The notes beneath the pieces were generated by a model. The model had not been told where the DNA came from. It searched no databases and saw only the letters and a list, made by a program, of their open reading frames with translations. This document shows, one piece after another, positions 22,946 through 52,025 of a stretch of DNA of 56,420 nucleotides; position 1 is the stretch's first letter, and every line of letters starts with the position of its first letter. A program made the position numbers and the translations under genes. The DNA comes from an uncultured Verrucomicrobiota bacterium (lineage in GTDB: Bacteria; Verrucomicrobiota; Kiritimatiellia; CAIKKV01; CAITUY01), in the NCBI GenBank assembly GCA_964568965.1, contig CAZMSS010000001.1, positions 1-56,420 on the forward strand, given 5' to 3'.

Positions 22946-23317
22946 TTACCTTGCCGACGGTGAGGCGGCGATGACGACGAGGCCGCGTTGCATGAGATCC
23001 TTCAGGTATTGCACAAGAAGGGCGCGGGCCTCGAGGAAGGTAAGCTTCTCCGCGGATGCCAGTTCCATGACGAGCTGCTCCAGCGTCCGCTTGCCATCCA
23101 GCTTCGCGTAAAGCTCCCGGGAGAGCCCCGCCAGCTCATAGCGGCGTACACGCTTGGTTTTAAGGATCTTGGCGGCCAGATTCAACAGGCCGCTATACCG
23201 GAGGCGAACCTCCACGATCAAGGCTCCGGGATTGTGGTCCGGGGTGTAGGCCTTGACCCCCTCGTTCCGCACCGGCACGCAGTGCAGCTGCGTTTCGAAA
23301 TCCAGGTGTTTTTTCAT
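22946..23317 (-). CDS. PqqD-like small protein (RRE / peptide-chaperone fold candidate)
   Basis: The protein is 123 aa. The C-terminal half LYAKLDGKRTLEQLVMELASAEKLTFLEARALLVQYLKDLMQRGLV fits the PqqD winged-helix pattern. The ATGA overlap with the upstream gene is at 23314-23317. Confidence 0.55.
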   Translation of the reverse strand: MKKHLDFETQLHCVPVRNEGVKAYTPDHNPGALIVEVRLRYSGLLNLAAKILKTKRVRRYELAGLSRELYAKLDGKRTLEQLVMELASAEKLTFLEARALLVQYLKDLMQRGLVVIAASPSAR

Positions 23318-24168
23318 GGGGCGAGCAACTCCTTCTCATCCAGAAGTTCCACCTTGCGGGGAGCCGACTGCACCCAGGCGTAAATTCGTTTCTCCGTCGT
23401 GTCGTGCCAGATCCGGCCAACGCCCGGCCAGCGTGCGGCATACAGCTTGTCCATGCCGTGGGTGCCGCGGATTTCGGCCGTGATCTTCACGGATTCCATG
23501 CCGTGAAACGTGTCCCTGCTGCTGGTCAGGATACGCCCCTCATGCCCGCGCAACACATCGCCGAAAAATGATTCCAGGTTGCGAGTCCTCAGCAACTCGC
23601 GCGGTACACCCCAGCGGTGCAGGTCGACCTTGTGCATGTTCTTCCGTTCAAAAGCCAGCCATACGTCGGCCGGTTTGCAGGAGGCCTCCTCCAGCTCGAA
23701 ATCGCGAGGGAGGCGGCACCGGATGCCGAACAGGGACCATTCGCGCCAAACCCCGTCATTCGGCTTGCACGATTCCAGGATCGGGCGCCAAATCCGCTCG
23801 AACTTTTCCGGAGAAAATTCCGGGAAACTCCACAGGAGAACCTTGGACTCGCGCGCGAGGTGGGTCACCGCCGAGCAGGGGGCGCCGGCGGCGGGGTGCC
23901 CGACGAGAAACGCGCCAACCCGCCGGGTCTCGAATTCAGAGAAGCGTTGAAATGCCTCCTTGTCGAATTGTTTCAGGTAACGGCGGTGATATTCCGTCAG
24001 GATGCGCTTTTCATCCGGCAGGCGTTTGCAGGTTTCCCAGGAAAGAACGCCGAGCGGCCCGTGCCGGTCGGCAAATTCCAGTCGCCCGACCTGTGCGGCG
24101 ACGGAGTAACGCGACACTTCCCACTGGTCCGGGACCTCCGCGGTGAAGTCATGCCACGCAATGCGCAC
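23314..24168 (-). CDS. Hypothetical cytoplasmic protein (284 aa), no recognisable domain
   Basis: The ORF has a GTG start overlapping the TAG of the upstream ATPase by 1 nt. There are no TM segments. It is W/R/E-rich with no motif I can assign. Confidence 0.55.
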   Translation of the reverse strand: MRIAWHDFTAEVPDQWEVSRYSVAAQVGRLEFADRHGPLGVLSWETCKRLPDEKRILTEYHRRYLKQFDKEAFQRFSEFETRRVGAFLVGHPAAGAPCSAVTHLARESKVLLWSFPEFSPEKFERIWRPILESCKPNDGVWREWSLFGIRCRLPRDFELEEASCKPADVWLAFERKNMHKVDLHRWGVPRELLRTRNLESFFGDVLRGHEGRILTSSRDTFHGMESVKITAEIRGTHGMDKLYAARWPGVGRIWHDTTEKRIYAWVQSAPRKVELLDEKELLAP

Positions 24169-24914
24169 TAGGCGTCACCCCGCCCCCTGATGGAGCCGAC
24201 CGAGATGTTCATGGAGGCGGTGTCCTGGATCTTCTCGATGGCGCCATCCTTGATCCAGACAATACGGTCGGAGGCCGCCAGCATCTTATGGTCGTGGGTG
24301 GCGCTGATGACCGTGACGCCCTTCTCGACGGAGAGCTGCTTGAAGAGCGTAATAATCTCCTTGCCGGTGTTCAGGTCGAGGTTGCCGGTCGGCTCATCGG
24401 CGAGCAGGATGGTGGGTTCATTCACGAGGGCGCGGGCGATGGCCACACGCTGTTGCTGGCCCCCGGAGAGTTCGTCGGGCCGGTGCGTAAGGCGTTCGCC
24501 CAGCCCGACGTAGGTCAACACCTCGGTGGCGCGGCGGTGGGCTTCCTTCTCGTCAATCCCCAGGAAGATCTGGGGCAGGGCGGTGTTTTCCAGGGCGGTG
24601 AGGAACGGGATGAGATTGTAGGTCTGGAAGACATAGCCGATGTGGCGGCAGCGGAAGTAGGAGCGCTCGAGGGAGGTCAGCGAGGAGATCCGGACGGACT
24701 TCACGCGCACTTCGCCGCTGGTCGGCGTGTCGAGGGCGCCGATCATGTTGAACAGTGTGGATTTTCCGGAGCCGGAGGGCCCCATGATCGAGAGGTATTC
24801 CCCCCGGTAGATGTCCAGGTCCACGCCGCGCAGGGCATAGACTGTCTCCCCCTTGCTCTTGTAAACCCGGTCGATGCCCCTGACCGACAGCAGTATTTCA
24901 TCCGATTTCATCAT
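24168..24914 (-). CDS. ABC transporter ATP-binding protein, MacB/LolD/FtsE type (copy 2)
   Basis: Motifs are Walker A GPSGSGKST, the signature LSGGQQQRVAIARAL, Walker B ILLADEPT and the H-loop ATHD. The start is trimmed to the ATG at 24914 (MMKSDEILLSVRG) with GGAGAG upstream. The track N-terminal extension to 25037 overlaps the upstream gene. Confidence 0.9.
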   Translation of the reverse strand: MMKSDEILLSVRGIDRVYKSKGETVYALRGVDLDIYRGEYLSIMGPSGSGKSTLFNMIGALDTPTSGEVRVKSVRISSLTSLERSYFRCRHIGYVFQTYNLIPFLTALENTALPQIFLGIDEKEAHRRATEVLTYVGLGERLTHRPDELSGGQQQRVAIARALVNEPTILLADEPTGNLDLNTGKEIITLFKQLSVEKGVTVISATHDHKMLAASDRIVWIKDGAIEKIQDTASMNISVGSIRGRGDA

Positions 24915-26897: not shown

Positions 26898-29800
26898 TCA
26901 TTCCTGGGTGCTTGCGAAAACGTCGCTCGTTGTCCGGTAATGTTCGACCGTGGCGACGGGGAGTGACCGCCAGAGCAGGAACTGCTGGCGCAGTTCATCC
27001 ACAAAGATGCGGTTCCCCCTCAGCCAGGCCCCCTCCGTGCCGCTGACCTTCTTCAGCTCCACGACCACTTCGTCAATGCCCTCAATCTCGGACGGCCGCG
27101 AGAACATGGTGAACGCCTGCATGACGCCCAGATCGAAAGGAGCCAGCGAGACTCTGGCGCGGATGCCGCGGGATCCCCGCTTGTCCAGGTTGAAGAGCTC
27201 GACCTCGGACGCTGCGAAGTTGCCGAGCGAGGAGTCGCCATGATTCCCGAAATGTTCGGCAATGAAGGCCAGGATGCCGCCCATGTCATTGGCCGAGACC
27301 GTGAAGGGGAAAACAAACTCGATCCGGTCGTCGGATGGCTTGGGCATCTTCCACCGGCGGGCGACGCCGGGGTTGGCGGAACGCCCCGCCTTGATGGCCG
27401 GATAGATGGTGGAGATCATCACCATGACCATGACGATGAGGATCGTCAGCACCGAGGCGAGGGATGAGAAATTCATTTCTGGCGGAACGAACCAGCCGAG
27501 ATCCCCGCAGAGGCCGACGACCTTGGCCGCCACCTGGCTGACCAGATAGCCGCCCATGCCGCCGAGGATGGCATAGACTCCCGATTCCGCGAAGAAGAGC
27601 GCGCCCACGTCCGGCGGGGCCAGGCCCAGTGCGCTGTAGGTGAAGATCTCCTTCTGCCGGTCCACGATGGATCCGAGCAGCGAGTTGAAGATGATCAGCC
27701 CGCCCAGCAACAGCGGCACGATCAGCATGACAAAGCCCGAGGCCTGCATGGACTTCGAGAAGAAGAACTGGTTGGTGCCCTTGGAGCCCTTGGCGTTGAC
27801 CGGTCCCACGAAGACCTTGGCCACATCGCGGGCGGTTGCCTCGACATCCGACTCGGCCCCGGCGTACATCACGATCGCATTGACAAGCGGGGTAAGCCGG
27901 TCCGATGCGAGCCGGCCCAGGCTGCCCCGGGTGGTGATGCCGATCGTACGCGACGGGAAATAGGTGAAACGGGTGGCGTCCACGGATATTTCCTGCGAGC
28001 TGTCCGTTCCGCCCTTGGCCATCCCCTCGATTCCGACTTCACGGGACGAGGCTTCAAAGTCGGGGGGGGCAAACCGGGCCTTGTCCAGAAAGGTCAACTG
28101 ATCCACCGCGGCCGCGTCAAAGGTTCCGCCGAAGGTGAACGTCTCGCCCCCGATGGAAAGGATCGCGCCGGGGGTCACGCCCAGGGATTCGGCCACCCGC
28201 TGATGAAGAAACAGGGGAGGGGGCTGGTTTGCCTGGTTGGTCGAGGCTGCCCAGGCGGCCAATCCCGGAATCGCCTGTGACAGGACCGGGTTCGATGCCA
28301 GTTCTTCCGGCTCGAGGGACACCATGGCTTTCAGCGTCTCCCACTTGCGCGTCTCCTTCTGGAAGACCACCAGCTCGCCATCGATATCGCTGGCCGGTGC
28401 CCGGAAGAGGCATTCCCGCGCATGGATTTTCCACTCTCCGCCGTATAATGCCTTAAGCGACTCCAGGAGGGTCTGGGGGATGGCGAGGCTGGAGAAGCGG
28501 CGCAGTTCAATCCGGTTCGGGCCTGAACCCTTGCCGAGGTAACTCTCCTTGACCCCGATCATGGAGGTGAACGAGGCGAACACCACGATCGTGAAGGTCA
28601 GCATGATGATCGTCAGTGCCGTCAGGAATGTTTTCAGGGGCCGGTTCCGCATCCCGGATATACCGATCAATACCGCGGCCATGGCGGTGCTGCTATCGGC
28701 CGCCACGCCGTGGGCGCTGGTGCTCAGGCCCTGGATCTCGCGCAGCTCGCGCTTGAACTTGGACATGACGATGGACATCACCACCACGCTGAGCAGAATG
28801 ATGACAAAGGCCAGGAAGATGATCATGGGCGATGCGGCCAGGGCAAACGCCGGATGGGCCATGTACAGGAGGAAGAACGTCGCCAGGAAGAGGCCGGCAA
28901 AGCCGAGCACCTGCCGGTAGATCGTGAGGCTGTTCAGGAGCAGGCGTTCGAGCACAAAGGCGAAGGGGATGGTCAGTAACAGCAGCAGCACGACGGCGCG
29001 GATCATGTCGTTGGTGACTTCCCGAAGGGGTTCCGCGACCCGAGCCCCCATGGTGGCGGCGAAGGCCTCATGGGCGACGGCTCGGGGAATGTCCTGGGTT
29101 TTGCGCGCCTCCACGGCGGCGTCCCAATGACCGACCGCGTCCGCATGCAGGGTTTCAAGGGACTCGTTGATGATCGCCTTTTCCCGCAGGATACGGAGAC
29201 GCGACTCGTTGAGCAGGGTGTAGTCGTGGGCCGACTGGCGCAGGGCATTCTTGGCATACATGGGCGGCTCATCGATCGGGAGGCCGGTTCCCTGGGGATT
29301 ATTGGTTGTAGACCCCAGCAACAGCAGTCCGCCGTTGGCATAAACCTTGAACGCCCCGTGCTCGTCGGCGAAGAACTGCAGGACTTCCTCGATCGTGGCG
29401 ATCATGTAGCTGTTCCGGAAGAGGGAATCGGAACGGCCTTCGGCCACGGTGCAGACCGGCTGGCCGTACTTGCCCGGCAGCAGGGGAAGGAACATCACCC
29501 CGCCATAGCCGTAGAAGAGCCGCCGCGTGCCCCAGCTTCCCGAGGGGAAGAGGTTCAGCTCCCCGTTGGCGTCAAAGCCGAGCGGCCGGTACGGCACATT
29601 ATTGAACATCATCGGCATGAAAATATGCCCCGAGGCCAGGATGCGCGATGCGGAGGAATAGGAATTTCCCGCGATGCAGGGCATTCCCTGGACCTTCATC
29701 GGCGCACAGAACGCCACGCCATCCCGGGGTACACCCTCGACGTCGGTGGAGCCGCGCACGTAATTCAGATAACGAATCCCGCCCTCTCCGCGAAAATGCA

Positions 29801-31688
29801 GGACAGAGTCGGGATTGAAGATCGGCGCCGCCAGCGGGCAGTACTGGGACAGTTCGGGCGCCGTGCCCAGTCCCCGGCAGAAGGCGGTCATCCGCGGGGA
29901 CAGTGCCTCCAGGTCCACCGCCTGTGCGTAGGGTAATTCATCGGCCTCAAGCGGATCCGCGACCGTCATCATCTGGTATCCGAAGACCTGCATGGCGTGG
30001 GCGATGCGGGAAGGGACGCTGCGGATCGACGGAACACAGAACCGGTCGGGTTGCTGCAGCGCAAGCACCGGCGCCGTGAACAGGTCGGGTCCCGCAGGTC
30101 CGTTCGTCGCGCGCGTCGCGGCGTCCATGGCCGTCACATCGCGCAGGTTCTTGACAAAATCCCCGGCTTTGATCTGCGCGAACTTGCGGTTGACCGTGTG
30201 GTAGAAGACTTGGGCCCCGATGCCATTGAACGCCAGCGTCCAGTCATCCTGCGTGTTGGCGAAGTCAAAGCTATAGTGGCCGACGATGCGTTTTGAGCCG
30301 AGTTGCCCGTACAGTTCAAGATGCGTTGCGTTCTGGGTCAGGAGGCGTTGGTGATCCCCCATGTCGCGGGTCAACCAGGCACGTTCCTCGGCGGCGACCC
30401 GGCCGAATGTCTCTCGATCGGTGATCGCCTTTTTGTGCAGCTGGCGGCGCAACTCGTTGAGGCTTGTCCGCTCCGTGGTCAGGCTGTCCAGCTTCGTCGT
30501 GAGGGTTGCGCGGGTGGCGCTCTCTTCAGGCCCGAGGTTCTTCTTGCGATTCATCGCGGCCAGGGGGCGGCGCAGGCCGCTCAGCTCGAAGTTCATGCTG
30601 CTCACCTTGGCGGCGAGACGCTTGTCGAGATCCTTGGTGACATCGAACAGCAGCGGATGACTGTCGGCGAAAAAGTCATCCCGCTTCAGCAACTCAATGC
30701 GGGAGGCCAGCCCGTCGATAATCTTCTGGTACTCGCCGTTGCGGGACTCCAGCTCGCCGTGGGCGCCGGTTCGCACGGCATGGTAGAACATCCGCGCGCC
30801 GTCCTGCATGGCGTAATGACTGCCGAAGAACACCACGAACACGCTTCGCGGCATGGGATGCTTGGCCAGTTCGACGGCGACCTCGGCCAGGAGGGCGCAG
30901 TTGGCCGCCTCGCGGATGGCCGGGCAGCGACCCGGCACGGTGCCGAACGTGTCCATGGTGGCGGAGAGCACGACTGCCTCCTCCTCGAAATTAAAGGAGG
31001 CGCCCTTGATGCCGGGGATCTCGACCCACAGGTTGACGCCCTCCACGTCCTTCCAGACGGTGGTGAGCGACAGGCTGGCCTTCCGGCCGGGTTGCCAGGA
31101 CGACAGGCCGTATGTGCGCGCCACCTCCGCATCGACAAACAAGCGCGGTAGCGCCACATCGAGCTCGATGAACTGCCGGCCCACCTCCTGCCGTGTCTCC
31201 GTGCCGCTCCCCACAAAGACAACAGCCAGCGCACCCTGGCTGAAAACTTGCCGCATGTTGGGCGAGTTGAAGTTGAGCACCGCGATCGAGCCCTCCACGG
31301 GCTTTCCCTTCATGTCCTCAAGCGTGCCATCGCCCAGCCACACGAGCGGGCCGGTGATTTCGCGGGCGCCGGCCGTATTATTGGCCGCGCCATTGGGGCC
31401 CAGGGCATAGACGGGGGTCACCTCGCGGCCGTCGACACGCAGCATGCAGCGCCGGGTTTCGGGAACCAGCGTGTCAAAGGTCTGGCGGTGGGGCGTCAGC
31501 CCGGCTGCGCGGAAGGTCGCCTCGAGCGTGCCGATACAGGATGTGAGCGCCGGGCTGCCGGCCAGCCGCTGCTCATGGGACGCGAACTCGCGCATGACCG
31601 TCTTGTAGTTCTCGCCGGCGTGGAGCAAGGGTGCCATCAGCCCGAGGGTGGCGGTCGCTGTTCTAATTATCGTCAACACCTTATTCAT
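26898..31688 (-). CDS. Giant (~1596 aa) fusion protein: signal peptide, M28/PA peptidase-like ectodomain (degenerate), coiled coil, unknown ectodomain, 3 TM, MacB-type FtsX permease and a C-terminal cytoplasmic domain
   Basis: The start is the ATG at 31688 (MNKVLTIIRTATATLGLMAPLLHAGE), overlapping the upstream ATPase stop by 8 nt. The FtsX signature is QKEIFTYSALGLAPPDVGALFFAESGVYAILGGMGGYLVS. The MacB-type TM1 is RNRPLKTFLTALTIIMLTFTIVVFASF. See the domain features below. Confidence 0.85.
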   Translation of the reverse strand: MNKVLTIIRTATATLGLMAPLLHAGENYKTVMREFASHEQRLAGSPALTSCIGTLEATFRAAGLTPHRQTFDTLVPETRRCMLRVDGREVTPVYALGPNGAANNTAGAREITGPLVWLGDGTLEDMKGKPVEGSIAVLNFNSPNMRQVFSQGALAVVFVGSGTETRQEVGRQFIELDVALPRLFVDAEVARTYGLSSWQPGRKASLSLTTVWKDVEGVNLWVEIPGIKGASFNFEEEAVVLSATMDTFGTVPGRCPAIREAANCALLAEVAVELAKHPMPRSVFVVFFGSHYAMQDGARMFYHAVRTGAHGELESRNGEYQKIIDGLASRIELLKRDDFFADSHPLLFDVTKDLDKRLAAKVSSMNFELSGLRRPLAAMNRKKNLGPEESATRATLTTKLDSLTTERTSLNELRRQLHKKAITDRETFGRVAAEERAWLTRDMGDHQRLLTQNATHLELYGQLGSKRIVGHYSFDFANTQDDWTLAFNGIGAQVFYHTVNRKFAQIKAGDFVKNLRDVTAMDAATRATNGPAGPDLFTAPVLALQQPDRFCVPSIRSVPSRIAHAMQVFGYQMMTVADPLEADELPYAQAVDLEALSPRMTAFCRGLGTAPELSQYCPLAAPIFNPDSVLHFRGEGGIRYLNYVRGSTDVEGVPRDGVAFCAPMKVQGMPCIAGNSYSSASRILASGHIFMPMMFNNVPYRPLGFDANGELNLFPSGSWGTRRLFYGYGGVMFLPLLPGKYGQPVCTVAEGRSDSLFRNSYMIATIEEVLQFFADEHGAFKVYANGGLLLLGSTTNNPQGTGLPIDEPPMYAKNALRQSAHDYTLLNESRLRILREKAIINESLETLHADAVGHWDAAVEARKTQDIPRAVAHEAFAATMGARVAEPLREVTNDMIRAVVLLLLLTIPFAFVLERLLLNSLTIYRQVLGFAGLFLATFFLLYMAHPAFALAASPMIIFLAFVIILLSVVVMSIVMSKFKRELREIQGLSTSAHGVAADSSTAMAAVLIGISGMRNRPLKTFLTALTIIMLTFTIVVFASFTSMIGVKESYLGKGSGPNRIELRRFSSLAIPQTLLESLKALYGGEWKIHARECLFRAPASDIDGELVVFQKETRKWETLKAMVSLEPEELASNPVLSQAIPGLAAWAASTNQANQPPPLFLHQRVAESLGVTPGAILSIGGETFTFGGTFDAAAVDQLTFLDKARFAPPDFEASSREVGIEGMAKGGTDSSQEISVDATRFTYFPSRTIGITTRGSLGRLASDRLTPLVNAIVMYAGAESDVEATARDVAKVFVGPVNAKGSKGTNQFFFSKSMQASGFVMLIVPLLLGGLIIFNSLLGSIVDRQKEIFTYSALGLAPPDVGALFFAESGVYAILGGMGGYLVSQVAAKVVGLCGDLGWFVPPEMNFSSLASVLTILIVMVMVMISTIYPAIKAGRSANPGVARRWKMPKPSDDRIEFVFPFTVSANDMGGILAFIAEHFGNHGDSSLGNFAASEVELFNLDKRGSRGIRARVSLAPFDLGVMQAFTMFSRPSEIEGIDEVVVELKKVSGTEGAWLRGNRIFVDELRQQFLLWRSLPVATVEHYRTTSDVFASTQE
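27387..28637 (-). other. MacB-type permease module of the giant protein (TM1, ~275-aa extracytoplasmic loop, FtsX TM2-4)
   Basis: This covers aa ~1027-1443 in ORF-track numbering. The TM segments are FLTALTIIMLTFTIVVFASF, GFVMLIVPLLLGGLIIFNSLLG, VYAILGGMGGYLVSQVAA and LASVLTILIVMVMVMISTIY. Confidence 0.75.
30771..31583 (-). other. M28-peptidase-like module with an inserted PA domain; canonical metal and catalytic positions appear substituted
   Basis: M28-like landmarks are RLAGSPA, the PA-like GPLVWLGDGTLEDMKGKPVEGSIAVL...GALAVVFVG, and VNLWVEIPG. The usual HxD motif reads VVLSATMDTF, so the His is replaced. The GADD-ASG region reads PGRCPAIREAANCALL. The AEE-GLxGS region reads FFGSHYAMQDGARMF, so the EE pair is replaced by HY. 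All alignments were made by eye. Confidence 0.5.
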
Positions 31689-32445
31689 CGTGTTCACCCA
31701 GGCTCGCCTTTTCAATCAGGAGGTCGGAACTCAACTCGATCCGGTTCACGCTGCCGTCCACGATCCACACAATCCGGTCGCAGACCTTGAGCATGTTGTA
31801 GTCATGGGTCGCGCAGATGATGGTGACCCCTTCCTGCCGGTTCAACTCGTACAGAAGCTGGTGGATCTCCCGGCCGGTTTTGATGTCCAGGTTGGCCGTG
31901 GGTTCGTCACAGAGCAGAAGGGAGGGGTTGTTGGCCAGGGCGCGCGCGATCGCCACGCGCTGCTGCTGGCCGCCGGACATCTCCTTGGGGCGGTGGTTCC
32001 AGCGGTCCTTGAGCCCGACCCGGTCCAGCAGCGCCATGCCGCGCGCGCGCGCATCGTCGGCGTGCATCCCGCTGAACACCATGGGCAGGGTGACATTGTC
32101 CAGGGCCGTCATGACGCTGTTAAGGTTGTAGGACTGGAAGACATACCCGATTTTGCGGCAGCGCAGGAACGCGAGTTCCTTGGCGTTGAGCTGGGCCATG
32201 TCCACGGCGTCCATGAAGACGCGCCCCTTCGAGGGGGAATCCAGCCCGCCGACCATGTTGAAGAACGTGCTCTTGCCCGAGCCCGAGGGGCCCATGACGC
32301 ACATGTATTCGCCCCGGTACACGCACAGGTTGATATCCCTCAGGGCGTGAACCGTCTCGGTGCCGCGCTGGTAGAGCTTGCGCACGCCCACCGCCCGCAG
32401 GACGAATTCCCGGCCCTTCGCATATTCTTTTTCGTCGTATGGCAT
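31681..32445 (-). CDS. ABC transporter ATP-binding protein, MacB/LolD/FtsE type (copy 1)
   Basis: Motifs are Walker A GPSGSGKST, the signature MSGGQQQRVAIARAL, Walker B LLLCDEPT and the H-loop ATHD. By eye it is about half identical to copy 2. Confidence 0.9.
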   Translation of the reverse strand: MPYDEKEYAKGREFVLRAVGVRKLYQRGTETVHALRDINLCVYRGEYMCVMGPSGSGKSTFFNMVGGLDSPSKGRVFMDAVDMAQLNAKELAFLRCRKIGYVFQSYNLNSVMTALDNVTLPMVFSGMHADDARARGMALLDRVGLKDRWNHRPKEMSGGQQQRVAIARALANNPSLLLCDEPTANLDIKTGREIHQLLYELNRQEGVTIICATHDYNMLKVCDRIVWIVDGSVNRIELSSDLLIEKASLGEHDE

Positions 32446-32451: not shown

Positions 32452-33930
32452 CTATTCCACCCTCATGGCATCCATCGGGGCCATGGCCGCCGCCGCCCGT
32501 GACGGGTAGATGGAAGCCAGCATTGACAGCAACACACCCAGAACAACCGTAAAGACCGCGCACAACAGCAGGGGCAGGGCGGGGAAATACACAAAGACGC
32601 TGACGCCGAAGATCGCCGAGCTCTTGATCAGGGCGACCAGCAGGCCAATGGCCATGCCGAGGGTTCCGCCGATCATGCCCTGGATGGCCGCCTCGATCAG
32701 GAACTGGTTCAGGATGAAGCCGTCCGTCGCCCCCAGGCATTTCATGGTGGCGATTTCCCGGAAACGCTCGGTAATGGACATGAGCATCGCATTGGTGATG
32801 CCCACCATGCACACGATGAAGGAGATGACCGCCAGGAACAGCTGGCTGCCGTCAAGAAATCCCGCCGGCTCACCGCCGGACGTGCGCCGGACGGGAAGCT
32901 TATCCTCCAGGTTCCGCAGCTGCTGTGCCCGCGTGAAGTTGGCCGCCACCGCAACCCGCTGTTGGGGGGTGAATGATCCACCCAGGAGCGAGTCCGCCCG
33001 CGGGTCGTTTACTTGAGCGAACTGCTCCTCCAGGGAGGGCAGGGACCCGAACGACTCTTTCCAGGCCTTGCGGCTTTCATCCGACTGCAGCAGGCGGGCG
33101 ATGCGGGTCTCGTGCGAGGCCAGGGTCAGCAGATGCCGGAGCCGGAGCATCACCACGGGCTCCAGGCGGAATCCGGCGGCCACGACGGCCTGACGCCACT
33201 GTTCAACCTCGGCGTCCCGGGCGCCGGCAATCCAGTCGGCGACATCCCCGCCGCCGGTGAGTGCCTGGAGACGGGTCTGCAGGCCGGTCACGGTGGCTGC
33301 CCAGCCGGCGCGCGCCGCTTCAAGGCTCTTCAGGTGATTTGACCAGTTGTCGACAAACGCCCGCATGGTTGTGATATCCGTAGGAAGGCGCAGGGAGCGC
33401 ATGTTGGCGAGATTACGGGTGAATTCATCCCAGCGGGCCGGGTCGGCGAGTATGGTGAAGACCTCGCGGCCCCGGGCTTTTTTCACGAGCACCATGCGCT
33501 TGCCGATGTTCATGTCCTCAAAGAACGACAAGTACTTGTTTTCCAGCCGGCACTGGCCGGCCAGCCGTGCGGCGGCCTCGGGCGTGATCCCGGCGACCTG
33601 CGCAAACTCCGCGAGGGTCTCCGGCTGCCCATGCGCGGCGGCCAGCTTGCGCGACAGCCCGAGGGTGGAATGGGGGTAGAAGATGTGGGTGAGCAGGAGG
33701 TCGCCCTCGCGCAGGTCGAGCACCGCCGCGGCCACCCCCTTGCCGATGGATCGCGTCATGGTGCCCTCGCTGAGAAGGGCCATGAAGAACGCCACCGCCA
33801 CGACAACGACCGCCAGCGTCAGCGAGGAACGGAACAGCCGGTACGAGATGCCCTTGAGGCAGAACCCCAGGGACTTCCGGAACGAAAGCTGCACCTGCTT
33901 GCGCACATCCATATGTTCTGATGACGTCAT
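32452..33930 (-). CDS. FtsX-family ABC permease with a ~330-aa helical-looking extracytoplasmic domain
   Basis: The N-terminal TM is LTLAVVVVAVAFFMALL. The C-terminal FtsX domain reads ERFREIATMKCLGATDGFILNQFLIEAAIQGMIGGTLGMAIG plus two further TMs. The loop between them is A/L/R/E-rich. Confidence 0.85.
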   Translation of the reverse strand: MTSSEHMDVRKQVQLSFRKSLGFCLKGISYRLFRSSLTLAVVVVAVAFFMALLSEGTMTRSIGKGVAAAVLDLREGDLLLTHIFYPHSTLGLSRKLAAAHGQPETLAEFAQVAGITPEAAARLAGQCRLENKYLSFFEDMNIGKRMVLVKKARGREVFTILADPARWDEFTRNLANMRSLRLPTDITTMRAFVDNWSNHLKSLEAARAGWAATVTGLQTRLQALTGGGDVADWIAGARDAEVEQWRQAVVAAGFRLEPVVMLRLRHLLTLASHETRIARLLQSDESRKAWKESFGSLPSLEEQFAQVNDPRADSLLGGSFTPQQRVAVAANFTRAQQLRNLEDKLPVRRTSGGEPAGFLDGSQLFLAVISFIVCMVGITNAMLMSITERFREIATMKCLGATDGFILNQFLIEAAIQGMIGGTLGMAIGLLVALIKSSAIFGVSVFVYFPALPLLLCAVFTVVLGVLLSMLASIYPSRAAAAMAPMDAMRVE

Positions 33931-35997: not shown

Positions 35998-37359
35998 TCA
36001 TCCTTTTTTGGCAACCGGCCGGCCGGCCATGAAGGCCTCCACGTCGTCCATTTCAAGCAGGGCGCCGGCGGTGAAGTTCTCGATGCCGTTTTTGGTGATC
36101 ACCACCGTGTCCTCGCACCGGATGTAAAGCTCCTCCTCCGGAATCCAGGTCATGGGATCCACGGACAACACCACGCCGGGCTCCAGGGGCTTGTCGCGGT
36201 AGGAGCAGGCGTCGTGCACCGCCAGCCCGACCGGATGGGAGAGGTGCGGCTTGAACACGAGCATGCGCCGGGCGGCCTGCTCGTAGATTTTCTTGGACCA
36301 CTTGGTCTTCCTGATGACCCGCTCCATCTTGTTGGCGGCCGCCTTGAGGACATCATCGGCCATGACGCCGGGGCGCAGGAGGGACAGCAGGGTTTTGTGA
36401 TACTGGATGATGAACCCGTAAAGCTCGCGTTGCCAGGGGGTGTACTTGCCGTTCACCGGCCAGATGCGGCCGATGTCGCTCGCGTAGTTGTTGTAGTCGG
36501 GGGCGCCGTCCATCAGGACGATATCGCCATCCTTCATGACGGCATTGTTGCGGCTGTAGTGTCCGAACTGCATGTTGCGCCCCGAGGCGACGATCGTGCT
36601 GTAGGCCTCGCCGGTCGCGCCGGCCGCGAGGAAGATGTGGCTGGCCTGGGCGGCGAGTTCGCGCTCGACCATGCCGGGCCGGGTGATGCGCATGGCTTCC
36701 ATGACGCCGAGCGCGGTCAGGCGGCCGGCTTCGCGCATGACGGCGATTTCACAGGGGCTCTTGACCCGGCGCATCCGCTCGATGATGGAGTCGATCTCCC
36801 TGATTTCAACGTTCGGCAAGCGTGTTTTCAGCAGGGCAATGAAATGCTGGCGGGGGGAAGGCCGTCCATCCCAGGGGTCTTCAGAACGCATTTTATCCAT
36901 GCGGATAGCCGTCCAGCGCGTCACAAAGGGCAGTTCGGCCGGCTTCTGGAAAACATGCAGGGTCTTGACGTCCTTGAGGAATCCGGAGAGTGCCTCGGGG
37001 CCGTAAACCTCGTCGACGCCGGTGAAGCGGCGGATCATGGCGTCATCTTCAGCGCCCAGTCCCACCTCATCCGGATGCTTGTCCGCCGGCCGGTGGGGAA
37101 TGAAGAGCCGGGTCTTGCGGTCGGTTCCCGACATCAGCAACAAGGCGTTGGGGATCTCCACGCCGCAGCAGTAGTAGAAATCGCTGGCCTGGCGGAAGCG
37201 GCCGCCGGCCTCCCCGGGCTCGCCGCGCAACAGCACATGGGCCCCGGCCCCGATCTCCTTGAAGATTGTCTTGCGGCGGGCTGTGAATTCCGCCGGCGGA
37301 AAGGCCTCGTTGAAGTAATACCGCGCCTGGGTCAGTGTAAGCGTCTTGGTCTTTGTCAT
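35998..37359 (-). CDS. M24B-family Xaa-Pro aminopeptidase/prolidase-like metallopeptidase
   Basis: The pita-bread ligand motifs are VLMDGAPDYNNYASDIGR (D, D), HLSHPVGLAVHD (H) and IRCEDTVVIT (E). The usual xEPG Glu position reads VLSVDPM, an Asp in my by-eye alignment. There is no signal peptide. Confidence 0.85.
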   Translation of the reverse strand: MTKTKTLTLTQARYYFNEAFPPAEFTARRKTIFKEIGAGAHVLLRGEPGEAGGRFRQASDFYYCCGVEIPNALLLMSGTDRKTRLFIPHRPADKHPDEVGLGAEDDAMIRRFTGVDEVYGPEALSGFLKDVKTLHVFQKPAELPFVTRWTAIRMDKMRSEDPWDGRPSPRQHFIALLKTRLPNVEIREIDSIIERMRRVKSPCEIAVMREAGRLTALGVMEAMRITRPGMVERELAAQASHIFLAAGATGEAYSTIVASGRNMQFGHYSRNNAVMKDGDIVLMDGAPDYNNYASDIGRIWPVNGKYTPWQRELYGFIIQYHKTLLSLLRPGVMADDVLKAAANKMERVIRKTKWSKKIYEQAARRMLVFKPHLSHPVGLAVHDACSYRDKPLEPGVVLSVDPMTWIPEEELYIRCEDTVVITKNGIENFTAGALLEMDDVEAFMAGRPVAKKG

Positions 37360-37405
37360 GCCCTTCTCCCTTTCATGATCGATTGCGTTGTGTTGTAGGT
37401 GAAAA

Positions 37406-38578
37406 CTATTTTCCGAAACGATGCTTCTTGACGGCGCCCTCGTCGAGCTGGACGCCGAGCCCGGGGCCTTCCGGGACGGGTATGCAGCCGTCCTCGAGGG
37501 GCAGGGACATCAGCCGGTCGTGGGGTGGAGCCAGCAGGCCGGTGTGGATGCCGATCTCGGTGAACTCGACGGCGTCGACCATCTTCACGGTGGATGCGGC
37601 GAGATGCAGTTTCGCCGCCCGCTCGATGCCGGTGCCGAACGCCGTGCCCAGGACGCACTGCAGGCCGGCCGCCTCGGCCAGGGCTGCGATCTTCTTGGCA
37701 TTGTAGAGGCCGCCCGCCTTGCCGATCTTGATGTTCAGCACGTCGGCCGCCTCGTGGCGGATGATCTGCATGGCGTCGTGAATCGTGTAGCAGCTTTCGT
37801 CGGCCTCGATCAGCGTGTCCACGGAACGCCGTACGCCGGCCATGCCCTGCAGGTCCCACGCCTGTACGGGCTGTTCGAGGAGGTCCAGGCCCACATCGTG
37901 CTTTTCGGCCAGCCGGCAGAGACGGATCGCCTCCTTGGGGGTATAGCCCTGGTTGGCGTCGGCACGCAAGGAGACGCCCTTGCCCACCGCTTCGCGGATG
38001 GCGCGCAGTCGGTCGGCATCCTTGTCCGGGTCGCCGCCGATTTTCGGCTTGAACGCGCGAACGCCCTGTTTCATGTATTTGACGCACTCGTTTGCCATGT
38101 CGTCGGGCGAACCGCCCGCGATTTCAATGGCCACGGGGATGCGCTTCTTGTGGGAGCCGCCGATGAGGGCGCTGACAGGGACGCCGAGGGCCTTGCCCAT
38201 CAGGTCGTGGAGCGCGAGGTCGAGACCGGCCTTGGCGCAGGAGTTTCCCCGGTAGTCGATATGGTGGATCAGGTATTCGCGGTCGAAGGGGTCCTTGCCG
38301 ACGAGTTGCGGCCCCAGGTAATCCTCCACGGCGGACTGGATCTCCTCGATTGTCTCGCCGAAGAACCCGATGTCGGCCGGCGCTTCCCCGATCCCGGTTG
38401 TGCCCGCGTCGGTCGCGATGTGGACCAGCAGGTATTCGAGGATCGGGGATGGGCGTTTAGGCGAGACACGGCTCAGGCGTCCACCCCACTCCCGCTTCGT
38501 CCCCGCGTTCTCCGAGTTGTAGAAGAACTGGGTGAGCGGGATGCGGACTGCGGTTGTGGTGACGGCGGTGATCTTCAT
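37406..38578 (-). CDS. Enolase-superfamily enzyme, MLE subgroup (dipeptide epimerase-like, e.g. L-Ala-D/L-Glu epimerase family)
   Basis: The KxK motif is FKPKIG. The metal ligands are in LRADANQGY, LLEQPV and IEADES. The second catalytic Lys is in NIKIGKAGG. Confidence 0.85.
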   Translation of the reverse strand: MKITAVTTTAVRIPLTQFFYNSENAGTKREWGGRLSRVSPKRPSPILEYLLVHIATDAGTTGIGEAPADIGFFGETIEEIQSAVEDYLGPQLVGKDPFDREYLIHHIDYRGNSCAKAGLDLALHDLMGKALGVPVSALIGGSHKKRIPVAIEIAGGSPDDMANECVKYMKQGVRAFKPKIGGDPDKDADRLRAIREAVGKGVSLRADANQGYTPKEAIRLCRLAEKHDVGLDLLEQPVQAWDLQGMAGVRRSVDTLIEADESCYTIHDAMQIIRHEAADVLNIKIGKAGGLYNAKKIAALAEAAGLQCVLGTAFGTGIERAAKLHLAASTVKMVDAVEFTEIGIHTGLLAPPHDRLMSLPLEDGCIPVPEGPGLGVQLDEGAVKKHRFGK

Positions 38579-38591
38579 GGCGTTCCTTTTT

Positions 38592-39626
38592 TCAGCTCTC
38601 CGTTGGCAACTCGTGGGCGTGCTCCATGAGCGTGGTCAGCAACTTGACCGTGGCATCCATGTCATCGGCGTGACACAGCTGCACCGTCGAATGCATATAG
38701 CGGACGGGTGCGCCGATGGTGGTGGCGATGACGCCCGCCCGGGACTGCTGGATGGCGCGGGCATCGGTTCCCCCGCCAATGTTCTTCTGGAAGGGAATCC
38801 GGTTCTTCTTGCACAGGTCGTACAGGAAACTCAACAGGCCGCGGTGGCCGATCGTCAGGTTGTCCACCAGGTAGATGCCCGTGCCCTTGCCCGGTTCGCA
38901 GAGGTTCTGGTGATTCTTGACGTAGGCGCCACGGGTCATGCTGCCGTCCAGGGCGATGCCGATGTCGGGATCGATGCCGAAGGCGGCGGGGGTCATGCCG
39001 CGCAGGCCGACTTCCTCCTGTACGGAGCTCACGGCGTAGACATCCACATGGGTTTCCTTCACCTGGCGCATGGCTTCGAGCAGGCAGTAGGTGCCGATGC
39101 GGTCGTCGAAGTTACGCCCCACCCACATCTTGCCGTTCAACAGCGAAACATCCTCGTCGAACGTGACGATGTCGCCCACATCGATGAGCTTGAGGAGATC
39201 CCGCTTGGACAACCCGGTGTCAATCAGCAGGTCATCGAGAACGGCGGCCTTTCCGTCGGGGCCGGCCGGCTTGGGGACCACGACCCCGCGCACGGGTTTC
39301 CGGCCGTGGATGATGACGCGCTGGGACTCGACAACCTGCGGGTTGAGGCCGCCCATCTGGATGAAGTGGATGAATCCCTCGTCGTTGATATGCTTGACCA
39401 TCATGCCGATTTCGTCGGCATGCGCGGCGAGCAGTAAACGGAGGGGGTGTTTCCCCTTGGCGGGCGGGCGGGTGGCCTTGCGGAGTCCGATGACGTTCCC
39501 CATCCGGTCTCGGCGCACCTCGTCGCAGCAGCCTCGCAGAACATCCATGGCTACCGCCTGCACCCCGTCCTCGAATCCGGACACTCCGGGGGCATTTCCC
39601 ACACTCTTGAGTAATTCGTGGTTCAT
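38592..39626 (-). CDS. M42-family metalloaminopeptidase (FrvX/glutamyl aminopeptidase-like)
   Basis: The N-terminus is APGVSGFEDGV and the motif LLAAHADEIGMMV is present. Length is about 344 aa. The sequence GGAG lies 9 nt upstream of the ATG. Confidence 0.88.
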   Translation of the reverse strand: MNHELLKSVGNAPGVSGFEDGVQAVAMDVLRGCCDEVRRDRMGNVIGLRKATRPPAKGKHPLRLLLAAHADEIGMMVKHINDEGFIHFIQMGGLNPQVVESQRVIIHGRKPVRGVVVPKPAGPDGKAAVLDDLLIDTGLSKRDLLKLIDVGDIVTFDEDVSLLNGKMWVGRNFDDRIGTYCLLEAMRQVKETHVDVYAVSSVQEEVGLRGMTPAAFGIDPDIGIALDGSMTRGAYVKNHQNLCEPGKGTGIYLVDNLTIGHRGLLSFLYDLCKKNRIPFQKNIGGGTDARAIQQSRAGVIATTIGAPVRYMHSTVQLCHADDMDATVKLLTTLMEHAHELPTES

Positions 39627-39846: not shown

Positions 39847-40905
39847 ATGTATCGCCAGTATTTCATTGATTTGACTCGCAAGGACGTCCGTGTACCCATT
39901 GGTGTTGACATGATTCTTCACAAGTACCCGGATGTGGATGCCATTCTCGACGATGGGGAGCGGATGGGTCAGGTTCTTCTGGAGGCGGCGGGGTTCTATA
40001 ACAGTCCGATTGTGATGCCCCACATGGACCTAATGCTCGAGAAGGATCATCTGCTTGCCCTGATGGGCGTTCCGGAAGCGGATCGCCCGGCCTATCATTT
40101 TCATGGTTGCCCCCCGGAAGCGATGGTCGCTGCATTCAAGTCCGGGATCAAAGGGCCACTGGGGCGCAGGATGGAAGCCCGGAACGAGGCCATCCGGTAT
40201 GTCGCAACCCATTCCACGCTCCTGCCCATGGGTATTTCGATCGGCCCCTTCTCCCTGATGACCAAGCTGCTGGCTGATCCTATTACCCCCATTTTCCTGC
40301 ATGGAGCGGGGGTTTCCGGTGATGACGATCCGGAGGTCAAGGCCGTGGAGGTCTGTCTGGAGCTTGCGCTGGCCGTGGTCTTGCGCGCCATTGAGGCTCA
40401 ACTGGATGCCGGGGCCAAGACGATTATCGTGGCCGAGCCGGCTGCCAATACCGTCTATCTCTCGCCCAAACAGATGGAGGAGGGGGCTGATATCTATGAC
40501 CGGTTTGTACTGGCCCCAAATAGGGTCATGCGCGAATTAGTGGCAGAACGTGGTGCTGCATTGATATTTCATGACTGTGGGGCGCTTACCCCGGAGATGA
40601 TCCGCAAGCTCGACACGTTGCGGCCCGAGGTATTCAGCTTCGGCAGTCCCGTGAACTTGTGGGAGGCGGCGGATCTGGTGTCGAAGGACACGGTTCTCTA
40701 CGGGAATCTCCCCTCCAAGCGGTTCATGTCGGACTCCCTGATCACGGTTGAGCAGGTGAAGGCCGCCTCCCGTGACCTGGTGGCGAGGATGCGGGACAAA
40801 CAGCATCCTTTCATGCTGGGCACGGAATGCGATGTTCTTTGCGTTCATGAACACAAGGAGACGATTGCCCGCAAGGTGGAAGCCTTCATGACCTGCGAGG
40901 TCTAG
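39847..40905 (+). CDS. Uroporphyrinogen-decarboxylase (URO-D/MtaA)-like family protein, second copy
   Basis: Length is 352 aa. It shows URO-D-fold-like landmarks: GISIGPFSLMTKLL (GPFT/SL motif), AGAKTIIVAEPAAN..LSP, IFHDCGA and LYGNLPS. Confidence 0.65.
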   Translation: MYRQYFIDLTRKDVRVPIGVDMILHKYPDVDAILDDGERMGQVLLEAAGFYNSPIVMPHMDLMLEKDHLLALMGVPEADRPAYHFHGCPPEAMVAAFKSGIKGPLGRRMEARNEAIRYVATHSTLLPMGISIGPFSLMTKLLADPITPIFLHGAGVSGDDDPEVKAVEVCLELALAVVLRAIEAQLDAGAKTIIVAEPAANTVYLSPKQMEEGADIYDRFVLAPNRVMRELVAERGAALIFHDCGALTPEMIRKLDTLRPEVFSFGSPVNLWEAADLVSKDTVLYGNLPSKRFMSDSLITVEQVKAASRDLVARMRDKQHPFMLGTECDVLCVHEHKETIARKVEAFMTCEV

Positions 40906-40968
40906 GAACCCAGGGGGGGGGGCTACGAAGACTTGTGCCGGCGCGGGCGGCCCTGCTATGCTCCGGTC

Positions 40969-44435: not shown

Positions 44436-44480
44436 CGAAAAAAAATATAGACTCATCGCGGAAAAGTCAACGGCGCCGCG

Positions 44481-45389
44481 TCAGTCGAGGCCGGCGAGGC
44501 ATTTGCGCAGGGCGGCGGCCCCTTCCCGGGAGACGGGGTAGAGGGGCGGCCGCGGGGCGCCGACGGGGTGCCCCATCAGGCGGCAGCCGGCCTTGACGAA
44601 CTGGGTGTACCGGCCCCCGCCCTCCATGAAGGAGAGGAGCGGCAACAACTTGAAGTACAGCGTGCGGGCGGCGGCATAATCCTTTTTCACGACGGCCAGG
44701 TCGTATAGCCGCACAAAGCTCCGGGGCGTCACATTGGAGACGCCGGTGACCCACCCTCCCGCGCCCATCATGAAGCTCTCCAGCGCGAGGGTGTCGCACC
44801 CGCAGAACACGCCCAGCCGGTCACCGCACAGCCGGGTCAGGGAGCTGACGCGCGACATGTCGCCGGTGCTGTCCTTGACATAGCGGATGTTCGAGAGGGT
44901 GGTCAGGCGCGCGATGAGGTCCGGCGCCATGTCCACGCCCGTGCGGCCGGGGTAGTTGTAGAGCATGACCGGGATGCCGATCGCGGCATTGATCGCGCGG
45001 AAGTGCTCGAACAGTTCGTCGGGCGTGGGCAGGGAGTAATAGGGAGCGGCCAGCAGCACCCCGTCGCAGCCGAGCGCCTCGGCCTGGCGCGAGTAGGCGA
45101 TGACGTCGCGCGTTGCCCCGGCGTTGGTGCCGGCGAGAACCGGGACGCGTCCATCGGCCGCTTCCAGCGTGGTGCGCAGGACGCGCTCCCGCTCGTCGGC
45201 CGACAAGGCGTAGTACTCGCCCGTGCTGCCCAGCGGGATCAGGCCGTGGATGCCCTGGCGGATCTGGTACTCGACGAAGGCGCCGAGGGCGGGGTAATCA
45301 ACCTCCCCGTTCGCCTTCATCGGCGTGACAAGGGCTGTGAATACGCCGCGGAACGCTCCGCGGCGCGACTTTGAGGACTGGGTCTTCAT
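44481..45389 (-). CDS. DHDPS/NAL-family class I aldolase (2-keto-3-deoxy-sugar-acid aldolase-like)
   Basis: Motifs are FTALVTPM, LGSTGEYYALS and the Schiff-base Lys region IRYVKDSTGD. The start is trimmed to the ATG at 45389, which forms an ATGA overlap with the upstream ALDH stop. Confidence 0.85.
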   Translation of the reverse strand: MKTQSSKSRRGAFRGVFTALVTPMKANGEVDYPALGAFVEYQIRQGIHGLIPLGSTGEYYALSADERERVLRTTLEAADGRVPVLAGTNAGATRDVIAYSRQAEALGCDGVLLAAPYYSLPTPDELFEHFRAINAAIGIPVMLYNYPGRTGVDMAPDLIARLTTLSNIRYVKDSTGDMSRVSSLTRLCGDRLGVFCGCDTLALESFMMGAGGWVTGVSNVTPRSFVRLYDLAVVKKDYAAARTLYFKLLPLLSFMEGGGRYTQFVKAGCRLMGHPVGAPRPPLYPVSREGAAALRKCLAGLD

Positions 45390-46903: not shown

Positions 46904-47196
46904 GGCGTTATGCTACCTCCCCGAATTCATGCTGTCTTCTGATAAAACGGCAAAAGGTTGCCAGATAAATCCGACGGACGCAAGATTTGTCACTTCAATT
47001 GCTGGTGGACGCCGCCCCCGGGCGGCGTCAGCCCGCTTATTTTGGGAACGGTAGTCTGTCCCCGCAGCCGCTATTGACTTTCCGGTTTCAAAAATGGATT
47101 GTGGCGAACTTGCAAATGGCGGGAGGGATCGGGTCGTGGGCATCGGAATACAGAGGAGAGATTGTGGCAACGGAACGGGCAGCTTTTGAGGGGAAT

Positions 47197-49920: not shown

Positions 49921-49947
49921 GGAACACTAAAGAGGGAATACCAGACC

Positions 49948-52014: not shown

Positions 52015-52025
52015 AGGAGCAAAAC

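Follow-up and report, generated by a model that had tools for sequence, protein, structure and literature searches.

ABC (ATP-binding cassette) systems of Type VII such as FtsEX, LolCDE, MacB, YbbAP, and BceAB work by mechanotransmission and get their function from the periplasmic partner with which they are paired, and finding these partners is an active problem (PMC12646458). One such partner is EnvC, which has a peptidase fold devoid of catalytic residues and is driven by FtsEX (PMC7668044). Here we describe a protein of 1,596 aa, referred to below as the giant protein, that combines a permease of this class and a periplasmic head in a single chain. Its gene lies on the minus strand of a 56,420-nt stretch of DNA (the window) at positions 1 to 56,420 of contig CAZMSS010000001.1, GenBank assembly GCA_964568965.1, from an uncultured Verrucomicrobiota bacterium (Kiritimatiellia; CAIKKV01; CAITUY01). 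What is new is a Type VII ABC component with a covalently fused pseudo-M28/PA (protease-associated) head, encoded in a new conserved operon. Because the partner is fused to the permease, the pairing is given directly by the sequence. Neither a literature search nor the solved Type VII systems that we compared provided another case of an M28/PA fold linked to an ABC machine.

A Genuine Fusion in a Large, Undescribed Family

The giant gene is a single open reading frame (ORF; 26898-31715, minus strand), and the ATG at 31688 yields the 1,596-aa product. Searching 5.8 billion proteins retrieved from independent assemblies a protein of the same length that is 99.8% identical (3 residues different), as well as 49 more full-length homologues with 38 to 73% identity and lengths of 1,564 to 1,710 aa from many independent assemblies. 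The presence of the same single ORF in all of these excludes a fusion produced by a frameshift or by misassembly, and the fusion is therefore genuine and old. An earlier reading of the window made from the letters alone (the sequence-only reading) had proposed a covalent fusion, and had asked whether the N-terminal 900 aa and the FtsX part might turn out to be separate genes; with one ORF in about 50 full-length homologues and family-wide, they do not. It had also thought the fusion undescribed, and our literature search found no publication that mentions an FtsX-M28 fusion, DUF6785, or the giant-protein operon.

The family is undescribed rather than rare, and it is very large. A GTDB scan with one genome per species gave 441 relatives of the giant protein, and the best 80 of these belong mainly to metagenome-assembled genomes (MAGs) of Victivallales/Lentisphaeria, Kiritimatiellia, Verrucomicrobiota, and Planctomycetota; relatives are also present in Latescibacterota and Phycisphaera. 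When searched against 1.84 billion representatives, a profile of the ectodomain matched 1,197 clusters (at 50% identity) at E<=1e-30, 2,251 at E<=1e-10, and 7,671 at E<=1e-3, the last set presumably including ordinary M28 enzymes. Nearly all of the best 150 matches are 1,450 to 1,800 aa long, and one MAG carries at least four paralogous loci. The annotations of the relatives read “FtsX-like permease family protein,” [quoted passage not shown] or “hypothetical.” Three family members (P0129, P0174, and P0180) are far longer, at 2,769 to 3,053 aa, with ~1,100 to 1,250 additional N-terminal residues. We considered that these very long relatives might be fusions with operon partners and rejected this, the extension being made of bacterial Ig-like Big_5 repeats ahead of the M28-like domain.

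The Head Has an M28 Fold with Two Inserts

Pfam detects only FtsX in the giant protein (aa 1320 to 1436); the first 898 aa have no match even at E<=10, and neither a Pfam nor an NCBIfam model, those for M28 and PA included, covers the head. The homology was seen with a family profile built from 56 homologues, which matched sequences in the PDB collinearly over aa 23 to 309, with 2ek8 (9e-18) and BSAP (6hc6, 4e-15) followed by PaAP (4e-7) and then the transferrin receptor; nicastrin was matched too once a helical insert had been spliced out of the profile. Distant family members have Pfam-significant matches to Peptidase_M28, PA, MacB_PCD, and FtsX. Significance for M28 is confined to such distant relatives, and the PA matches of P0053, P0054, and P0056 fall on the region aligned with the PA insert. 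Modeling aa 1 to 900 with AlphaFold2 (AF2) on the family alignment gave a mean predicted local distance difference test score (pLDDT) of 91.6 and a predicted template modeling score (pTM) of 0.89. In Foldseek the modeled ectodomain matched the same aminopeptidases best (3.5e-17 to 1e-13), followed by transferrin receptor 1 (TfR1), GCPII, and NAALADase L. The alignments run over ~610 to 650 columns on targets of ~410 residues, and the M28 fold thus extends over approximately aa 24 to 612 with a large internal gap. Collinear homology and the Foldseek match of 3.5e-17 together assign the head to the peptidase family M28 fold, so that the M28-with-PA-insert layout first read by eye holds.

At the extreme N terminus, the AF2 model shows a low-pLDDT helix in the region of the putative signal peptide. 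Homologues have ...A-P-A/GE and V-S-A/DE at the putative cleavage site (slash), and the giant protein would by these sequences be cleaved after aa 23. The ~430 aa of ectodomain that the sequence-only reading had left unassigned have been divided into the second half of the M28 fold (aa 464 to 612), which is now assigned, a beta-rich domain (aa ~613 to 812), and stalk helices (aa 813 to 894). The second half of the M28 fold carries H471, D475, D583, E584, and an invariant P586. The beta-rich domain had no match when the family profile was compared with the sequences of solved structures. The last stalk helix (aa 867 to 899) continues into the first transmembrane (TM) helix in the AF2 model.

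The large internal gap of the M28 alignments is occupied by helices, which AF2 places at aa 312 to 334, 347 to 380, 387 to 418, and 425 to 463, the next M28 strand being formed by aa 467 to 475. Since they lie between that strand and the helix that follows the Glu-Glu strand, the helical region is an insert inside the M28 fold. Only ~25 residues are found at this site in P0053 and P0054. Conservation is lower in the insert than in any other part of the protein (0.44, vs. 0.63 for the N-terminal half of the M28 fold with PA, aa 25 to 311, and 0.52 for the C-terminal half), and a heptad a/d hydrophobic pattern beats shuffled sequences only in the helices at 347 to 380 and 387 to 418. The heptad-like stretch reported at about aa 320 to 470 is helical, as was stated, but it is a four-helix insert of ~150 aa within the M28 fold and not a linker or a long antiparallel hairpin of the EnvC type between permease and dead domain.

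The Canonical Catalytic Residues Are Replaced

Positions 244, 259, 291, and 292 were taken from an explicit hidden Markov model (HMM) alignment to 2ek8 and BSAP. The His of the H-x-D motif is replaced by Thr in T244-M245-D246, with D246 kept; R259 stands in the place of the metal-bridging Asp (D-D-A-S-G in 2ek8, D-N-G-S-G in BSAP); and the Glu-Glu pair has become H291-Y292, which puts H291 at the position of the general-base Glu, the first of the pair. All three substitutions that had been called by eye, at the H-x-D motif, the GADD Asp, and the Glu-Glu pair, are thus correct. The remaining two ligand positions were mapped by motif alignment through relatives because the second half of the fold could not be aligned with solved structures by sequence; even with the helical insert spliced out of the M28 profile, its alignment to solved M28 structures ended at the Glu-Glu helix. 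The strand GHYSFDFA of the giant protein corresponds to FVGLDLAS of P0053 and P0054, and the Pfam M28 match of P0054 extends to that strand (profile position 104), so that D475 would be the fourth ligand position. The last His ligand canonically lies in the motif Y-H-T-P-x-D-T; P0053 has V-D-T-P-L-D-T and the giant protein D-E-L-P-Y at this location, with P586 invariant, which would put the fifth position at E584. Read in this way, the five zinc-ligand positions are T244, R259, Y292, D475, and E584, and of the canonical set D475 alone is kept.

These replacements are themselves conserved. Among the 56 close homologues, none has His at position 244, whereas R259 is Arg in 53 and H291/Y292 is His-Tyr in 47; H471 (52 of 56), D583 (50 of 56), and D475 (48 of 56) are retained to a similar degree. 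In an hmmsearch alignment of 201 collected relatives, position 291 is His in 143, and the canonical catalytic set is found in 0 of the 201, from which we conclude that canonical co-catalytic zinc aminopeptidase chemistry has been lost family-wide. The loss of the canonical catalytic residues that the sequence-only reading had claimed is thereby established, and the finding that would have spoken against it, a profile alignment with all M28 ligands and the catalytic Glu intact, is not what we obtained. R259, N263, H291, Y292, H471, D475, and D583 are among the best-conserved residues of the head. Such conservation of the replacing residues suggests that the former active site is a pocket under selection rather than one in decay, in which R259 probably fills the former metal site and pairs with D475 and E584. 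Four subfamily patterns were recognized at positions 244/259/291/292/475/584, namely TRHYDE (the type of the giant protein), YEHF(D)D, N/P-R-Q-A-x-G, and PDYH-x-D.

A strongly conserved set of polar residues at and around a former active site could also belong to an enzyme whose active site has been rebuilt, either with a single metal on H291, H471, D475, and E584 or without metal, the transporter feeding substrate to the attached hydrolase or transferase in the manner of YbbAP-TesA. Glutaminyl cyclases, which carry out non-peptidase chemistry with one zinc on an M28 fold, count in favor of such an enzyme, and the subfamily-specific patterns (TRHYDE, YEHF-D) are likewise conserved. That an enzyme can be attached to a Type VII system is already known from YbbAP-TesA (PMC12646458). 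We nevertheless consider a rebuilt enzyme improbable. Each canonical metal site retains at most one ligand, and an Arg in place of the bridging Asp, as in the 53 close relatives above, is typical of pseudoenzymes that have filled a lost metal site. Moreover, the patterns vary by subfamily, and the N/P-R-Q-A-x-G type retains almost nothing.

The Permease Module Is of the LolC/MacB Type

Hydropathy and AF2 agree on seven TM helices (aa 895 to 913, 927 to 951, 956 to 974, 1020 to 1038, 1316 to 1334, ~1362 to 1390, and 1410 to 1428) and on a self-consistent topology, with the head outside, three TM helices, a basic cytoplasmic linker, TM1, a periplasmic domain, TM2-4, and a cytoplasmic tail. This confirms the three TM helices, the complete MacB-type 4-TM module with its ~275-aa loop, and the ~155-aa tail that had been read from the sequence. 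The head is tethered by a 3-TM bundle of its own, in place of the coiled coil that had been supposed to link the permease to the dead domain. The motif HPAF (aa 945 to 948; 28845-28856, minus strand) lies in the very short periplasmic loop between extra TM helices 2 and 3; none of the 56 aligned homologues, however distant, departs from it.

The 4-TM fold is that of the FtsX family (Pfam FtsX, 4.3e-10, above the cut-off), and the family profile matches the permease module to YtrF, MacB, and LolC in the PDB. In Foldseek, the AF2 model of aa 880 to 1596 (pLDDT 81.5) matched LolC/LolE first, at 5e-10 to 4e-9, and then the Streptococcus pneumoniae permease 5xu1, MacB, HrtB, YtrF, and YbbP. LolC, LolE, and MacB together span 5e-10 to 3e-8, while FtsX itself reaches only 5e-3 to 1e-2; the NCBIfam FtsX models have no match to the giant protein. 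A permease of the FtsX type proper, as proposed in the sequence-only reading, is thus not borne out. The large periplasmic domain between TM1 and TM2 is included in the Foldseek alignments to LolC, which cover ~490 columns, and the relative P0053 has a Pfam MacB_PCD match. NCBIfam gave only sub-threshold matches to ADOP and LolC (17 to 21 bits vs. cut-offs of 473 to 622), the score for the LolC/LolE equivalog being 17.2 bits against a cut-off of 473. The cytoplasmic tail has a beta-alpha-beta4-alpha2 fold with a weak START/Bet v 1/CoxG-like resemblance (Foldseek E ~0.03 to 0.05), and it is highly conserved, with the motifs FPFTVS, LAPFDLG, and FLLWRSLP.

A Conserved Operon of Transporters and ATPases

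The giant gene is part of a tightly packed minus-strand operon with intergenic gaps of a few nucleotides, in the order DUF6785/6784 protein, 492-aa FtsX permease, ATPase, giant protein, 656-aa OPT (oligopeptide transporter)-like protein, second ATPase, 284-aa protein, and 123-aa protein (Table 1). Its conservation was assessed by tblastn of the operon proteins against 83 fetched loci, the denominators in Table 1 being the loci with enough flanking sequence. The same order was found nearly everywhere that the flanks permit.

Table 1. Parts of the giant gene and genes of its operon, in window coordinates
Feature	Coordinates	Strand	Basis or remarks
Whole giant gene	26898..31688	-	1,596 aa + stop; pseudo-M28/PA ectodomain fused to MacB/LolC-type permease
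Putative signal peptide, aa 1-23	31620..31688	-	Sequence; AxA-like site before conserved G/D-E-x-Y
M28-like first half including PA insert, aa 24-311	30756..31619	-	Profile vs. PDB, column counts, Foldseek
PA (apical) insert, ~aa 100-205	31074..31391	-	Collinear with 2ek8 and BSAP
Four-helix insert in M28 fold, aa 312-463	30300..30755	-	AF2 secondary structure
M28-like second half, aa 464-612	29853..30299	-	AF2 strands from 467, Foldseek span
Beta-rich ectodomain, aa 613-812	29253..29852	-	AF2 secondary structure
Three stalk helices, aa 813-894	29007..29252	-	AF2 helices 815-836, 842-863, 867-899; conserved
Three extra TM helices, aa 895-913, 927-951, 956-974	28767..29006	-	Hydropathy, invariant columns, AF2
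Cytoplasmic linker, aa 975-1017	28638..28766	-	Basic; most conserved segment; FtsX-type pre-TM1 motif MRNRPLKT
MacB/LolC-type permease module, aa 1018-1437	27378..28637	-	TM1, periplasmic domain aa 1041-1315 (~275 aa), TM2-4
Cytoplasmic C-terminal domain, aa 1438-1596	26901..27377	-	AF2, Foldseek, conservation 0.72
DUF6785 + DUF6784 polytopic protein, 683 aa	33950..36001	-	Pfam; in 42/47 loci
Second FtsX-family permease, 492 aa, ~300-aa periplasmic region	32452..33930	-	Upstream in 44/52 loci
LolD/MacB-type ABC ATPase, 254 aa, upstream of giant gene	31681..32445	-	48/61 loci (lower bound)
OPT-like polytopic protein, 656 aa	24920..26890	-	Starts 7 nt past giant stop; 57/63 loci
Second LolD/MacB-type ABC ATPase, ~248 aa from ATG 24914	24168..24914	-	46/54 loci
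Soluble 284-aa protein, accessory	23314..24168	-	21/42 loci
123-aa protein, weak PqqD/RRE (RiPP recognition element)-like C-terminal half	22946..23317	-	20/42 loci

Two cognate MacB/LolD-type ATPases are encoded with the giant protein. Both have intact Walker A and B motifs, Q-loop, signature, and H-loop, and they are 50% identical to each other. At its start, the giant gene shares 8 nt with the end of the upstream ATPase gene (ATGAATAA), an overlap indicating that the two are translationally coupled. The 492-aa permease is a paralogue of the giant protein, with 23% identity over TM2-4. The 656-aa protein is the best-conserved component apart from the ATPases (47 to 79% identity). Pfam OPT matches 9 of its 17 orthologues, the best at 8.3e-11, and does not match the window copy itself; we treat the protein as a divergent member of the OPT family. 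As to whether the OPT-like and DUF6785 proteins are paralogues, BLASTP found nothing and hhalign gave a weak match (E 0.014, probability 3%), in which a region with the motif E-x-L-P/Y-F/P-P-M/L-A is common to both.

About half of the loci encode the 284-aa and 123-aa proteins, which make up a conserved pair of accessories. Pfam has no match to the 284-aa family, and its PqqD match to the 123-aa protein (0.0046) is below the cut-off; the 123-aa counterpart in locus L084 was independently given a weak PqqD call. In L084 the pair lies ~8 kb downstream of the giant gene and does not adjoin the second ATPase. Sequence searches of the PDB gave no match to the OPT-like, DUF6785, or 284-aa families. 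The loci inspected have no conserved gene for a membrane-fusion protein, TolC, LolA, an amidase, or another hydrolase near the giant gene.

Genes for an M42 aminopeptidase, an MR_MLE enolase-superfamily protein (possibly a dipeptide epimerase), and an M24 Xaa-Pro aminopeptidase are closely spaced and co-directional directly upstream of the operon in the window (35998-39626, minus strand), and the M24 gene overlaps the start of the DUF6785 gene. These neighbors hint at peptide catabolism in the lineage of the window only. At locus L002 (17692-24887), the operon is located between mreB and a dcw-type cluster (mraZ, rsmH, ftsI-like penicillin-binding protein gene, and Mur ligase genes), an adjacency not seen at the other loci inspected. 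Two different operon genes of locus L037 (L037:5526-7607 and L037:14827-16779) contain 2 in-frame stop codons each and are otherwise well aligned; this could reflect stop-codon recoding or sequence errors.

A Proposed Mechanotransducer with a Binding Head

With moderate confidence, we favor the view that the giant protein is the central subunit of a conserved multisubunit Type VII (MacB/LolCDE-class) ABC envelope mechanotransducer with a noncatalytic, fused binding head. The 870-aa periplasmic head, composed of the M28 fold with its PA and four-helix inserts, the beta domain, and the helical stalk, is tethered by 3 TM helices to the 4-TM module, and the adjacent LolD/MacB-type ATPase makes ATP-driven mechanotransmission by the giant protein plausible. 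If it behaves as other Type VII systems do (PMC12646458, PMC7668044), cytoplasmic ATP binding and hydrolysis would drive the motion of the periplasmic parts, and the function would be set by the periplasmic partner, which here is the covalently fused head. The giant protein would probably pair with its 492-aa FtsX paralogue as LolC does with LolE, although this part of the proposal is speculative.

The dead M28/PA domains of TfR1 and nicastrin serve as binding modules, and by analogy the head may be a noncatalytic binding module as well. The Big_5 Ig-like repeats at the N terminus of the long variants also favor a binding role. An operon of transporters, ATPases, and a PqqD-like protein, with no hydrolase, points to ligand or peptide handling rather than to the activation of cell-wall hydrolases. 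It is tempting to speculate that the ligand is a peptide or a protein N terminus, and that the OPT-family and DUF6785 permeases of the operon receive it from the machine or deliver it there. A peptide theme, equally speculative, might connect the OPT membership, the PqqD-like protein, and the M42, MR_MLE, and M24 genes that lie directly upstream in the window.

Several points weigh against this view of the head and its partners. A new site for a single metal could be made up of H291, H471, D475, and E584, so that catalysis may not be wholly lost. The subunit composition is a guess from gene order, and the distant relative P0053 stands alone, without the operon. OPT transporters are normally proton driven, and none is known to act together with an ABC system. 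The PqqD match, as noted, is under the Pfam cut-off, and the peptidase neighbors are not conserved beyond close relatives. A still more specific version, which we regard as doubtful, would make the family a new class of envelope machine of the Planctomycetes-Verrucomicrobia-Chlamydiae (PVC) superphylum and Latescibacterota, in which a Type VII mechanotransducer with a pseudo-aminopeptidase receptor head is mechanically coupled to OPT-superfamily and DUF6785 permeases for the ATP-powered capture of peptides or N termini and their hand-over across the inner membrane. If true, secondary-transporter-like channels would for the first time be known to be coupled to a Type VII ABC system.

The family matters beyond this proposal. 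It is large, unstudied, and distinctive in structure, it occurs in lineages of the Planctomycetes/Verrucomicrobia/Lentisphaerae type, whose envelope biology is poorly understood, and its conserved operon of six to eight genes includes DUF6785/6784 and the 284-aa protein, two families to which no function has been assigned.

Alternative Readings

The sequence-only reading had seen in the giant protein a fused analogue of FtsEX-EnvC, in which ATP-driven motion is transmitted through the helical region to a dead M28 domain that binds and activates separate hydrolases of the envelope (e.g., cell-wall amidases or endopeptidases). The general logic of that analogy stands: the giant protein unites a Type VII permease with a peptidase fold that is catalytically degenerate and has a helical element, and in EnvC, too, FtsEX drives a dead peptidase fold (PMC7668044). 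The position of the operon between mreB and the dcw cluster in L002 would be in keeping with it. The lack of hydrolases in the operon is weak evidence against it, since the partner hydrolases of Escherichia coli FtsEX-EnvC are not encoded beside it either. The analogy fails in the class of the permease, which is far nearer to LolC/LolE/MacB than to FtsX and has no NCBIfam FtsX match, in the fold of the dead domain, in the mode of attachment, and in the helical element, which is a short four-helix insert in the M28 fold that is poorly conserved and absent from distant relatives. Nor does the context support it: no hydrolase is among the conserved partners, which are transporters and a PqqD-like protein, the dcw adjacency was seen once, and several paralogous loci in one genome, at least four in the MAG mentioned above, ill suit a single divisome-type role. 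Taken together, a fused hydrolase activator of this kind seems unlikely.

A MacB-like exporter of a peptide or small protein (a toxin, a bacteriocin, or a product resembling ribosomally synthesized and posttranslationally modified peptides [RiPPs]) appears very unlikely. In such a system the PqqD-like protein would recognize the cargo in the cytoplasm, transport across the membrane would fall to the OPT-like and DUF6785 proteins, and expulsion or release from the periplasm to the giant protein, the large head replacing the adaptor protein. MacB/LolD-type modules and a PqqD/RRE-like protein are indeed encoded together, and relatives are named “antimicrobial peptide transport system permease” in several sources, which is a matter of annotation only. 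However, the cluster conserves no gene for a precursor peptide, a modifying enzyme, a membrane-fusion protein, or a TolC-like protein, and intergenic gaps of a few nucleotides leave no room in the operon for a small precursor gene. Finally, an artefact in which a frameshift or misassembly merged two genes has nothing in its favor and is rejected, the same single-ORF architecture being present in hundreds of independent assemblies and ~1,200 clusters.

Surroundings of the Operon

On either side of the operon and its upstream peptidase genes (1-22941 and 39847-54032), the window encodes glycoside hydrolases (GHs), namely two copies of GH31, a GH78 rhamnosidase, a GH106-like protein, and GH127, together with a sulfatase, a GDSL lipase, a 1,456-aa DUF2341/Laminin_G_3/SASA esterase protein, and an M66 peptidase whose gene is convergent with the end of the operon. 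This gene content is typical of a polysaccharide degrader. At 54001-56420 the GC content falls from ~0.63 to 0.50; an RHS-repeat C-terminal fragment (54014-55441) is followed there by a 167-aa ORF without a Pfam match, and the segment resembles the tip of a polymorphic toxin, possibly with its immunity gene.

Comparison with Known Systems

The mechanotransducer with a fused binding head that we favor shares with FtsEX-EnvC a Type VII ABC motor doing ATP-driven work outside the membrane and a periplasmic effector with a helical element and a peptidase fold lacking catalytic residues. EnvC, however, is not part of the permease chain, its fold is M23/LytM, and the X-lobes of FtsX hold its long antiparallel coiled-coil hairpin, whereas the giant protein has a dead M28/PA domain, a covalent tether through 3 extra TM helices, and internal helices of 23 to 39 residues each; its permease is LolC/MacB-like, and no link to an amidase is seen in the operon. 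The 4-TM module and its periplasmic domain are closest in structure to LolCDE and MacB, which have a Porter and Sabre periplasmic domain. Two different FtsX-type permeases share one operon, in the manner of LolC and LolE, and a LolD-like ATPase is co-encoded. Unlike these systems, the giant protein adds the 870-aa head, the 3 TM helices, and the ~155-aa cytoplasmic tail, and its operon has two ATPases and no LolA, MacA, or TolC partner. E. coli YbbAP-TesA is similar in that a Type VII transporter is physically joined to a periplasmic protein of hydrolase fold, which is seated on the periplasmic domains (PMC12646458). TesA, in contrast, is an active SGNH esterase and a separate protein, and YbbP has 10 TM helices and two FtsX modules, whereas the giant protein has one module plus 3 TM helices and a fused head without the canonical catalytic residues.

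The closest relatives of aa 23 to 612 in both sequence and fold are the PA-containing M28 aminopeptidases of Aneurinibacillus (AM-1, 2ek8), Bacillus subtilis (BSAP/YwaD, 6hc6), and Pseudomonas aeruginosa (PaAP, 8ac9). These are soluble, active enzymes with His/Asp/Glu/Asp/His zinc ligands and a Glu-Glu pair, and they lack the 150-aa helical insert that the giant protein adds. TfR1 and nicastrin, which were matched by profile and Foldseek searches, are membrane-tethered M28/PA folds without catalysis that act as binding or gatekeeping modules of membrane machines, as the head of the giant protein may do. They differ in being eukaryotic, in having a single TM anchor, and in that none is coupled to an ABC system; in the transferrin receptor and GCPII, moreover, the helical domain follows the protease domain and is not inserted in it. 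With these differences, the head of the giant protein may be regarded as the bacterial equivalent of dead M28 receptors such as those found in eukaryotes.

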